Assembly (NCBI GenBank): GCA_051294905.1 | Contig: CM119372.1 | Span: forward strand, 6,450,001 to 6,514,000 | DNA length: 64,000 nt | Source of the DNA: Botryllus schlosseri | Lineage: Eukaryota | Direction: 5' to 3' | The notes under the pieces: generated by a model | The model's input: the letters and a program-made list of their open reading frames with translations, nothing else | Databases searched by the model: none | Told to the model about the DNA's origin: nothing | Shown here: positions 15,801 to 18,800 of the stretch, piece after piece | How the letters are laid out: each line of letters begins with the position of its first letter | Position numbering within the stretch: the stretch's first letter is position 1 | Translations under genes and position numbers: made by a program

Positions 15801-18800
15801 GATTTCGCTTCTACATGTTGGCGCTCTTTGAACCATTCTAACTATTTGATTACATAGCCAGTAAAATTTGGATAAAAATGTTATATTTGAACAATCCTAA
15901 TCTCCATGTTATGCCACCGTGTGCGGAATTCGAAATTGGGAGTGCATGCAATTTTAGATCCCTGGTACCCGCCCACCGCCCACGATATCGAGCTGTTGAC
16001 AAGCAATTCATTACTAGGCCTCGGATGTATTTCAGAGACACCGAAATTTTATGAAGTGGACTGTCTCATGCATAACATGGAAAGGATATACTGCCGCTAC
16101 AGTGTTTTCCATCTGGGTACTTCCAAACATCTCACGTGTCCCAGCAAATTCGACTTCAAGTGGAGATTCATCGGAAAGTTAGCATATTACATACTGTGTT
16201 GACATTCGTGTGTTATTACGCATTAACAAAGAACTGGTCGAACGGAATTCATCTTCTACAATAATTTCATTGGGTTTTCTTGTACTGAATCGTCGTGATA
16301 TCGCTGCTGGCATTTTGACACGTCAACGTTGTCTATCGAGTCAGATGGTACTTTGCATCCACCTAGGGCAGTTCGTTGAAATGTAAAATCCTAATCGGAA
16401 ATGCACCTGCGTACCTATTGTGATGTATAATGAAGACGACTGTAGTGTAGTCACAATGTCGAACATTCGTAGGGGGCACTCATAGCCCACCCACCCGGAT
16501 ATTCCCCTTAACTCAGGCATATATTTTACAGGGATCTCTCCGGCCGTGACAAGCAAGACGCCTCTACTTGTCACGCTTCGTCCGAAATTGACGTAGCCGC
16601 TGTCATAGACAGCATCATGTACGCTGGGAAAGTCGAGATATCGGTGTCGACGTCCAACGTATTCGGCGTATCCACTTCCAACCTCACTTTCAACCCTCTA
16701 CACAAAAGTAAACTTCTAATTCACTGCCAAACAAGGCTGTTTTCAAAGTAGTATTTTTCGTTGGCAACAGTACACCCCTCCGCGCCTTTGTTGAGCATCG
16801 CATCGACAGTGCCGGACAGGCGCGGGGCCGTCGTTACCATGGAGGCCACTTTTCCGGATATCCGCAGCCAGAGTCTCACCAAGCTCTTGCGGTACTGCGA
16901 CAACTGTAGTTTGAAGGCGAGTAGCGCGTGGCGTGTAATTTGCATTGGGTTCAGACTTGTACAAACTACTATCTAGTTAGTTGGTGGTCACCTCTAACTA
17001 GTGTTTTTTTCTAGTTCTAATATTGGCGAGATAGCATAGTGCAGTGGTCGGGAACCTATGGCTCGCGAGCCATATATGGCTCTTTTCCAAATATTTATTT
17101 TTGTACTGAATTGATCAATATTGTAGCGACTGGTAAATTTTCATCACTGCCAAAATAATTATTTTCGTGGCAATATAAACATGTCTTTGAGAGGTAAAGA
17201 TAATGTCGTCTTCAGGTTTAGGGGCTCGGACGCCCCCTTCAAAATCATCATATTTAAGTTACTGTCACGCCAGCGGCCAGTATCACTCGTGAATTGTAAG
17301 CGCCATTATTGTTTGTGTTATACTGGAGTGGAACTTCGGCCCCTGTTAATTGGCAGGCTAATGATTAGTTTTCTGATTGCGATTGCGCCGTTCATTTAGT
17401 TGCCATATATAACGGCTACTCGTGCTGTTATAGGATGTCTCTTCGGTAATAAACGTTTATCGTGTGTAGACAAGACATCGTTTCGTGGTGCAACAGAGAG
17501 TACAGGCTCTTTATCCGTGGTGGCAGCGATGGGATTCGTACCCACGCCATCGAAATGACTGGTGACTCAAACCTCCTGGCGATGTATCCGAATCGAAATC
17601 TTGAATTGTGCGATACGTTGAATCAAAGAGCATTATGTTCCTGATCTATACGGCGCGAAATGAACTGTTGTGGATGTGACATTCACAATTACAAACTCGA
17701 ATTACAAACAACGCCATAGCTATCCACGTTGCACGTTCTGTGTAGTACCGGTGATAAAATGTAAGCTTGTAGCCCAACGTCATGTTACCACCGAATACTT
17801 TGAGAATTGAGAAGTCGATAAGCATTTAGATTTTCGGAATCAGTATGACAGTCACATTCGATTAATACCAGTTATAAAATAAATCCTAAGCTACTTACGA
17901 TGAATTGCCTTATCATTGGTGAGGCTTGGCCCGTATGCGTCTTACCTCTCGTTTCGAGCTTTATATTTGAACAATAAGTACCAGCTTTTACAGAGAAAAT
18001 GTGGCGCACACGAGGAATCCAATGTAGTGAGTTCGAATGAGTGTCACCATGACGTCACGTATTTTCAATTGTGACGTAACACTTGTTCGGCATGTATGGC
18101 TCTTTTGGAGTTGAGACGGAAAAAATATGGCCAATATGGCTCTTCGGACAAAAAAGGTTCCCGACCACTGGCATAGTGCGATAGTGGCATGATCCACAGC
18201 TGCAACACAACAGGTTGCGGGTTCGAGTCCGACCGAGGTCGACTCCGAAGTTCCTTGCAAAGCGGCTCCCCCGCACCACGTGATCTGCGTAAGCGGTGTC
18301 TTGCAAAAGCCTATACAAGTGGAGCATGCTACAAGTCGACAGCTACGAGATCACAATAAAGAATATTGGTCTGGTGTAAATGATCATTGCAGTAAATTCA
18401 GCACCATGAATGCCACAATCAACAAGTTCTAGTTCTAGTTGAGGATTTTAAAAATTGATTAGTTATAGTTCTAGTTGCGCATTTTAAAAAACATTTCGTT
18501 GCTCAACAACTATGGAAATCACGTGTCGGCATTAGGCGTAAATCGTGACAGCGATTTGTTGTTGTTCTAAAAGTCATTGCTCGCTCAGAACCATCACTAC
18601 CATGTAACATACTTGTAATTCAGTATAAATTTACGGCGCTATCACACCTTATATTTCAGTAGCTTCGCCAAGTACTTTTTTCACGTCTGACGATGTCATT
18701 CCCTTGCTCAAAAAGGTACCAGAGTTGATGTTCTAATCACGCATACATATACTGCCTTTATCTAAAGGCGTTTCTTCTGATGAGACGCATTTGGCGTACA

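Follow-up and report, generated by a model that had tools for sequence, protein, structure and literature searches.

A probable cDNA fossil of mature tRNA-Leu(IAG), borne and amplified by a non-autonomous hAT transposon family of Botryllus schlosseri

The closest described relatives of the sequence reported here are tRNA retropseudogenes, among which a mouse pseudo-tRNA-Phe 3' half, described in 1982, reportedly carries an encoded CCA, and tRNA-derived short interspersed elements (SINEs), for the origin of which Ohshima and Okada are said to have put forward a strong-stop-DNA model in 1994. We analyzed a 56-nt piece of tRNA-Leu in a 64,000-nt stretch of Botryllus schlosseri DNA (NCBI GenBank assembly GCA_051294905.1, contig CM119372.1, positions 6,450,001 to 6,514,000 of the forward strand; hereafter, the window), where it lies within a DNA transposon of the hAT type. 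The best explanation of our results, and one that we consider probable, is that this piece is a cDNA fossil of a mature tRNA-Leu that sits inside the hAT element and has been amplified with it as DNA. Mature tRNAs copied into DNA are a finding of decades ago; the present one, however, would preserve an RNA-editing event (A34 to inosine), and possibly also a misread methylation, as heritable DNA. Moreover, a tRNA-cDNA fossil can evidently be borne and multiplied by a DNA transposon, and because of such carriage a repeat annotated as "tRNA-like" or "primer-binding-site-like" need not indicate a retroelement.

Like tRNA retropseudogenes, the piece comprises a 3' tRNA part with the CCA in DNA and with short flanking direct repeats (here TCCTGGCG, seen in the older copies), and points to a reverse flow of information from a mature tRNA; unlike them, it also records A-to-I editing at position 34, and it resides in a DNA transposon amplified by cut-and-paste transposition rather than standing as a single pseudogene. 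With the SINEs of the strong-stop model it shares a CCA-bearing tRNA that is joined to retroelement U5-like sequence and amplified as a repeat. In those SINEs, however, the whole tRNA and the polymerase III promoter that it contains are kept, and retroposition is the means of spread, whereas the piece described here is without the 5' half and spreads as DNA. Its carrier resembles non-autonomous hAT elements, similar to miniature inverted-repeat transposable elements, in having (i) 8-bp target duplications, (ii) short inverted ends that start with CAG, as is typical of hAT termini, (iii) no transposase open reading frame (ORF), (iv) many copies, and (v) an internal block that is missing in relatives; it differs from other filler-carrying hAT elements in that the captured block holds cDNA of a mature tRNA. 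We know of no described hAT element with a captured mature-tRNA cDNA, and a literature search, which left most subscription journals uncovered and was not aimed at hAT elements, returned nothing on genomic fossils of tRNA-primer read-through or on tRNA cDNA in hAT elements. A further likeness is that to the primer-binding site (PBS) and strong-stop DNA found in retroelements with long terminal repeats (LTRs), since the + strand of the piece starts with the complement of a tRNA 3' end. In such elements, by one account, 1-methyladenosine at primer position 58 (m1A58) stops the plus-strand strong-stop DNA, and read-through past positions 58/54 occurs when m1A58 is absent (PMC8599865).

Read on the − strand, the piece runs GGTTTGAGTCACCAG...GCTGCCACCA and is, as a preliminary description of this locus had stated, the 3' part of a type II tRNA with an anticodon loop TT-GAG-TC and a terminal CCA. 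In an alignment with the host tRNA-Leu(AAG) gene over positions 29-73, 49 of 53 nucleotides are identical, the species-specific 13-nt variable arm of the host tRNA-Leu is present, and the similarity to the gene ends at position 29. As judged from this alignment, the copy matches the host's own isodecoder, extending beyond a generic T arm and lying far past chance. Its four differences from the gene are located at tRNA positions 34 (A>G; + strand base 17568), 37 (G>T; 17565), 55 (T>A; 17539), and 65 (C>T; 17529). In addition, position 73 is followed by an encoded CCA, which is found after none of 20 host tRNA-Leu genes and bears out the earlier claim that the piece is cDNA of a mature tRNA.

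The copy does not have the makeup of a functional tRNA gene, in that a complete cloverleaf, a 5' half, and an A box are all lacking. ARAGORN reported 0 tRNA genes in the window, and Rfam returned no tRNA match, even at an E-value of 10; this silence is expected, because the copy is without the 5' half. A match to a coronavirus pseudoknot that Rfam gave at a permissive threshold was set aside as a chance hit. We also rejected (i) a tRNA-derived SINE, as the tRNA is represented by its 3' part alone, an A box is missing, and each copy has hAT ends and an 8-bp duplication as its borders; (ii) a bacterial attachment site, that is, a tRNA 3' fragment at an island end with a gene-encoded CCA, as the assembly is a eukaryotic one of 495 Mb and the piece is a dispersed repeat; and (iii) a miniature LTR element of the terminal-repeat retrotransposon in miniature (TRIM) type around the fragment, as there are no flanking direct repeats and the repeat unit has inverted ends.

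Host tRNA-Leu genes were located by a pattern search, which gave 25 matches, and then by ARAGORN, which recognized 20 tRNA-Leu(AAG/TAG) genes in 17 of these 25 loci; the other eight loci are repeat copies of the fragment itself. At least ten tRNA-Leu(AAG/TAG) genes are clustered in ~110 kb (G000:C4:13.52-13.63 Mb; loci L018-L026). Over the copied stretch, the AAG and TAG genes have the same sequence except at position 34. A wider pattern retrieved 30 exact gene-type anticodon arms from the genome (19 AAG and 11 TAG), none of which contains a GAG anticodon and none T37, position 37 being G throughout. The preliminary description had named a host tRNA-Leu gene or SINE family with GAG, T37, and CCA as the observation that would speak against a cDNA; these 30 arms include no such gene.

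The differences at positions 34 and 37, as well as the point at which the copy ends, were examined against the modifications of tRNA-Leu, which in human include m1G37, m2,2G26, and m1A58, with inosine 34 in the AAG isodecoders, according to one published account (PMC5066629). Inosine 34 is stated elsewhere to be read as G in ~100% of cDNAs (PMC8062790). Because no GAG exists among the 30 gene-type anticodon arms, the interpretation of G34 in the copy as inosine read as G, which had been proposed before, is well supported. Consistent with this, GAG occurs in two independent cDNA-type copies, namely, the hAT-borne copy and an LTR-linked copy elsewhere in the genome (L038). The G>T difference at position 37 would represent misreading of m1G37 by the reverse transcriptase (RT), a retroviral-type RT being said to produce T in most of its mismatches at modified positions (PMC8062790). 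An end at position 29 would likewise reflect m2,2G26, and three LTR-linked copies elsewhere end at positions 27-28, close to the same G26, in line with the earlier placing of the end. By our own arithmetic, the chance that at least two of the three ancestral differences among 53 positions fall on 34, 37, or 58 is ~0.006.

To separate ancestral from private differences, we aligned 37 copies from several subfamilies of the repeat, which are 77-98% identical to the window copy and of which 35 were parsed automatically. Apart from L064 and the deleted L029, every aligned copy has G34. Inspection by eye showed T37 (A on the + strand) in all 37 copies (in 35 of 37 when parsed), and T65 occurs in 34 of the 35 parsed copies, with the C of the gene retained only in L005. 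The change at position 55, by comparison, is private to the window copy. These family-wide states imply that the founding copy already departed from the gene sequence at 34, 37, and 65 and carried the CCA. The two loop differences singled out previously are thus confirmed as ancestral, whereas the later drift that had been assigned to both positions 55 and 65 holds for the former and not for the latter.

The carrier was recognized from its ends. All six copies aligned to this end have the inverted ends in common, each with its own 8-bp target duplication (imperfect at 1 nt in L004), and the 15-nt end CAGTGGTCGGGAACC occurs without mismatch at either terminus of the window copy, as well as at the element ends in many loci; the window copy itself is bracketed by the 8-bp duplication GCATAGTG. 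The element contains no ORF of at least 120 aa, apart from one 120-aa stop-to-stop frame (17988-18350, − strand) that extends beyond the element. hAT dimerization domains are abundant in the genome, with 150 of 150 scored matches, out of 2,620 candidates, lying above the Pfam cut-off. A 101-nt query around the copy gave 190 first-look candidates in the genome, and the best 40, which were scored, were all 90-100% identical. By these structural features, the window element is a non-autonomous hAT DNA transposon. As the copy arrived here by DNA transposition, no reverse transcription took place at the window locus, and the integration of a cDNA at this site, as originally envisaged, does not hold.

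Within the element, the tRNA copy forms part of a 284-nt composite block. A related hAT element adjoining L035 is without this block and, when used as a query, gave 2,467 first-look candidates; the block is absent in 40 of 40 scored copies of this larger, older related family (81-100% identity), the sequence of which is uninterrupted across the site. Given the much greater size and diversity of the empty family, we take the block to have been inserted in an ancestor from which the filled subfamily descends. No target duplication surrounds the whole block. Its right edge lies no more than 2 nt from the point at which the tRNA copy and the adjoining 8-nt repeat end, a coincidence that favors a single composite event.

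Similar copies of tRNA-Leu occur elsewhere in this genome beside genuine LTRs. An exact 17-mer from the gene-type complement of the tRNA 3' end plus CCA gave 18 matches, one of them in a hAT copy and 17 attached to LTRs. At each of these 17 loci, an LTR end (...ACA before TGG) is followed directly by a 35-58-nt copy of tRNA-Leu with CCA and then by sequence that differs between loci. The ends of the copies cluster at tRNA positions 27-28, 36-39, and 42-43 or the variable arm, and none of the 17 lies at the canonical 18 nt. Among the four that reach position 34, three have TAG and one (L038) has GAG; none has AAG, although AAG genes are in the majority. Two of the LTR-linked copies show further peculiarities: in L039 (near 1517), tRNA position 58, an m1A site in other organisms, is G in place of A, and in L048 the sequence AATGACT occurs three times at the end of the tRNA copy (1501-1560), resembling polymerase stutter at a block.

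Four of the LTR-linked copies were checked and proved to be complete small elements of 661-1,155 bp, with LTRs of 135-153 bp, a polypurine tract (PPT), and a 5-bp duplication each. The two LTRs of an element are 100% identical in L048 and L050, 99.4% in L034, and 96.6% in L039. In full-length elements of one LTR family, the LTRs lie 4.2-5.0 kb apart, and the PBS matches tRNA-Leu over 8-11 nt in six of six elements (L111-L116), varying between copies; this PBS seems to be inherited from the element and not refreshed from the tRNA. By contrast with these PBSs, the hAT-borne piece measures 56 nt and has no demonstrable adjoining LTR. L050 (661 bp) and L039 (1,155 bp) are internal-deletion derivatives of the full-length family (compared with L117, G000:C6:4010440-4011400), in which the tRNA copy is joined to a site 352 and 840 nt upstream of the 3' LTR, respectively, with 98.6% and 99.3% identity and through microhomologies of 3 nt and 2 nt. 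Such joins fit an over-long plus-strand strong-stop DNA, the tail of which annealed elsewhere on the minus strand. In L042 and L043, the last 11 nt and ~59 nt of the LTR, respectively, recur after the tRNA copy and are followed by a short old PBS; the over-long strand seems to have re-annealed upstream.

Read-through of the primer past m1A58, which the preliminary description had invoked, stands unproven for the piece in the window; on the other hand, with 17 LTR ends that bear 35-58-nt tRNA-Leu copies, it does operate elsewhere in this genome. For HIV-1, read-through cDNA is stated in one account to be unable to integrate (PMC8599865); in contrast, this genome holds 17 integrated read-through products. 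The wider pattern of LTR elements may matter more than the hAT-borne piece, as it consists of young integrated elements with a 35-58-nt primer copy that is joined by microhomology to a distant internal site. The LTR-linked copies are natural instances of read-through strong-stop DNA that integrated, and they suggest a route by which miniature non-autonomous LTR elements form in one step after primer read-through.

For the hAT-borne copy, we propose that a mature tRNA-Leu, with its CCA added and A34 edited to inosine, was reverse-transcribed once in an ancestor of the repeat family, with copying running from the 3' end to about position 29, just before G26. The cDNA would then have become fixed inside a non-autonomous hAT element, where the 284-nt composite block is the apparent filler from repair of a break in the element, and the modified element would have been multiplied by hAT transposase to at least ~87 places. 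Whether the RT came from the tRNA-Leu-primed LTR elements of this genome is, in our estimate, about an even chance.

Several observations weigh against this history. First, A58 is unchanged in the copy, so that the usual m1A58 stop has left no trace; either the template was without m1A58, or the reading of the differences as modifications is weaker than it appears. Second, the ancestral C65>T falls on no known modified site. As position 65 is unlinked to modification, at least one of the three ancestral differences arose by plain mutation or through an error of the RT, as may also be the case for G37>T. Third, G37 is retained in the six LTR-linked copies that reach position 37 (L034, L035, L038, L041, L047, and L051), and T37 may be a plain mutation. 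Fourth, the direction of the change from empty to filled elements, insertion as opposed to deletion, is judged from how broad and how old the empty family is, with no outgroup, and no intermediate with the 222-nt remainder of the block (segment X) but without the tRNA copy was found (two matches, neither one an intermediate). Fifth, no autonomous partner was found, the exact end sequence being present in none of the eight hAT transposase loci that were fetched. Lastly, the number of copies is a lower bound, at least ~87 distinct sites having been obtained by combining place lists, with the best 40 of 190 candidates scored.

How the tRNA copy and segment X came together can be read in more than one way. 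If the priming event that the preliminary description had placed at this locus is moved to the family ancestor, segment X would be an LTR (U3-R-U5) of a tRNA-Leu-primed element that was captured by the hAT element; the strong-stop DNA would have run ~38 nt past position 58, and its tail would have looped onto the U5 end, yielding the second TCCTGGCG. X borders on the CCA end and is oriented as a tRNA-primed cDNA would be, and a TATA-like motif and an AATAAA are located upstream on the + strand, just as had been noted. Each of the 17 further CCA-tagged tRNA-Leu copies that the exact 17-mer retrieved adjoins an LTR, the U5 end is repeated after the tRNA copy in L042 and L043 as it is here, and the coincidence of the block edge with the end of the tRNA copy and its repeat suggests one event. 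Upstream of the tRNA copy, at a distance of 21 nt in the window and 25 nt in older copies, is a PBS-like TGGTGCAACAG that resembles TGGTGGCAACAG, a PBS variant from two full-length LTR elements (L115 and L116), which is a possible hint that X stems from a tRNA-Leu-primed element. We nonetheless consider this route, including the loop-back, doubtful. A 17-mer derived from X has 49 exact matches in the genome, all of them inside this family (24 paired with the tRNA motif, 11 among the earlier 101-nt matches, 13 in aligned copies, and one in L033), and three boundary patterns designed for X ends in a non-hAT context gave 0 matches, these being exact words that an old, diverged family would escape. 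X terminates in ...CCTGGCG in older copies and in ...TTATCCG in the window, not in CA, whereas ...ACA precedes TGG in 17 of 17 real LTR ends, and its TG start is confined to the younger subfamily, older copies reading ...ATTC|CATGCGCC. Neither BLAST nor Smith-Waterman comparison revealed significant similarity of X to the LTR families seen, which is weak evidence, as those families are unlike one another too. Moreover, no microhomology exists at the loop-back junction.

In alignments inspected by eye, neither X nor the block as a whole is bordered by a convincing 5-bp duplication or by TG...CA ends, and no second copy of X is present as a direct repeat within window positions 8000-32000. X lacks TG...CA ends, a second LTR, a PPT, and independent copies, as far as exact-word searches of low sensitivity can tell; a BLAST-type genome search, in which the best 40 candidates are scored, reaches no further than the hAT copies. 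The LTR identity that had been assigned to this upstream 222-nt segment could not be demonstrated. The preliminary description had itself held that the lack of a matching LTR family would speak against priming; none was found, by searches of low sensitivity, and this counts against it. Short repeats inside X, including a 15-nt repeat that gives two "U5 end + TGGTG" units, are at chance level in 341 nt and were not relied on. In some hAT copies, X contains a further nested insertion rich in GACTCGAG-type repeats (~300 nt in L005/L046; also in L033).

Another route begins from the 8-nt direct repeat. TCCTGGCG is found on both sides of the tRNA copy in the older L006, L008, and L064 and in most of L070-L089, and 26 of the 35 parsed copies have an undamaged left 10-mer. 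This repeat can be read as (i) the target duplication of a separately inserted free tRNA cDNA, (ii) the footprint of a staggered cut that was patched with cDNA, or (iii) a short templated repeat like the second occurrence of the U5 end that follows the tRNA copy in L042 and L043. Under the first two readings, a free mature tRNA-Leu would have been copied directly into a staggered chromosomal break in the hAT element, with X as an unrelated neighbor; the break could be a target-primed event of the LINE (long interspersed element) type, or else cDNA could have patched a staggered 8-bp cut of the hAT type or an excision footprint. The exact 8-nt repeat brackets the 56-nt copy in the older subfamilies, the copy begins exactly at the CCA end, which is the natural terminus of a free tRNA, and 8 bp is the duplication length of hAT elements in this genome, LTR elements having 5 bp in four of four cases. 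Set against this, the exact 17-mer search disclosed no other free retro-copy of tRNA-Leu, its 18 matches being the 17 LTR-attached copies and the one hAT family; an insertion within 2 nt of the edge of X needs a coincidence; no copy that has X and lacks the tRNA was found; and there is no poly(A) or LINE tail. We consider this route equally doubtful. A DNA-level capture during gap repair, from a tRNA gene or from an LTR element with a long tRNA copy and with the differences at positions 34 and 37 as ordinary mutations, is very improbable: although hAT elements often acquire filler, LTR copies with long tRNA stretches are present in the genome, and the ancestral difference at position 65 is certainly unlinked to modification, a gene source would give no CCA (0/20), an LTR source would have to start exactly at the CCA boundary without any LTR base, and GAG occurs in none of the 30 gene-type arms.

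The fossil of a mature tRNA-Leu within a hAT element thus remains our preferred explanation, and the interpretation given in the preliminary description is, as a whole, partly supported. We tentatively raise the idea, to which we assign somewhat less than an even chance, that the hAT-borne fragment and the 17 LTR-linked copies are products of one process, namely, occasional read-through by tRNA-Leu-primed LTR elements far into primers without the usual block at position 58, followed by rescue through 2-3-nt microhomology. If this is true, (i) internally deleted, TRIM-like elements would arise in a single replication cycle, (ii) tRNA modification would leave heritable DNA read-outs, with inosine 34 as G and with ends just before G37 and G26, and (iii) shed cDNA would occasionally be taken up and multiplied by other mobile elements.

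Table 1. Features of the tRNA-Leu copy, its hAT carrier, and the LTR-linked copies. Numbers are window positions, which equal the L001 coordinate + 15999; ends of LTR-linked copies were read by eye and are given as tRNA positions.
Feature	Location	Strand	Remarks
DNA copy of mature tRNA-Leu(IAG), positions 29-76 with CCA	17518..17573	-	GAG anticodon 17568-17566; T37 at 17565
Right copy of 8-nt direct repeat TCCTGGCG	17574..17581	+	left repeat minus 4 nt in window copy
Composite block, 284 nt (222-nt segment X + tRNA copy + TCCTGG, 6 nt)	17296..17579	+	5 filled vs 12 empty copies aligned
Segment X, 222 nt (earlier "LTR-like" segment)	17296..17517	+	TATA-like motif 17406-17412; AATAAA 17448-17453; PBS-like TGGTGCAACAG 17486-17496
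Non-autonomous hAT-type DNA transposon, 1,129 bp, insert-bearing "F" subfamily	17042..18170	+	copies alignable over full length, divergent beyond
Left terminal inverted repeat CAGTGGTCGGGAACC, 15 nt	17042..17056	+	L001 1043-1057
Right terminal inverted repeat, reverse complement of left	18156..18170	-	
Target-site duplication GCATAGTG, left copy	17034..17041	.	8 bp, recurs at right end
Target-site duplication GCATAGTG, right copy	18171..18178	.	
LTR-linked tRNA-Leu copies, 17 places	L034-L051 except L046		contigs C1, C2, C5, C6, C8, C9, C10, C12, C13, C15
LTR-linked copies ending at position 27	L034, L041		
LTR-linked copy ending at position 28	L047		
LTR-linked copy ending at position 32	L038		
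LTR-linked copy ending at position 36	L051		
LTR-linked copy ending at position 37	L035		
LTR-linked copies ending at position 38	L039, L042, L045		
LTR-linked copy ending at position 39	L037		
LTR-linked copies ending at positions 42-43	L036, L040, L048, L050		
LTR-linked copies ending in the variable arm	L043, L044, L049		

The hAT copy in the window is itself inserted in another repeat, at about 17020-17041 and 18171-18330, which looks tRNA-derived and has a T-arm-like GGTTCGAGTCC. This host repeat gave 1,121 first-look candidates, and 40 of 40 scored were 74-100% identical, the top one being the query itself.

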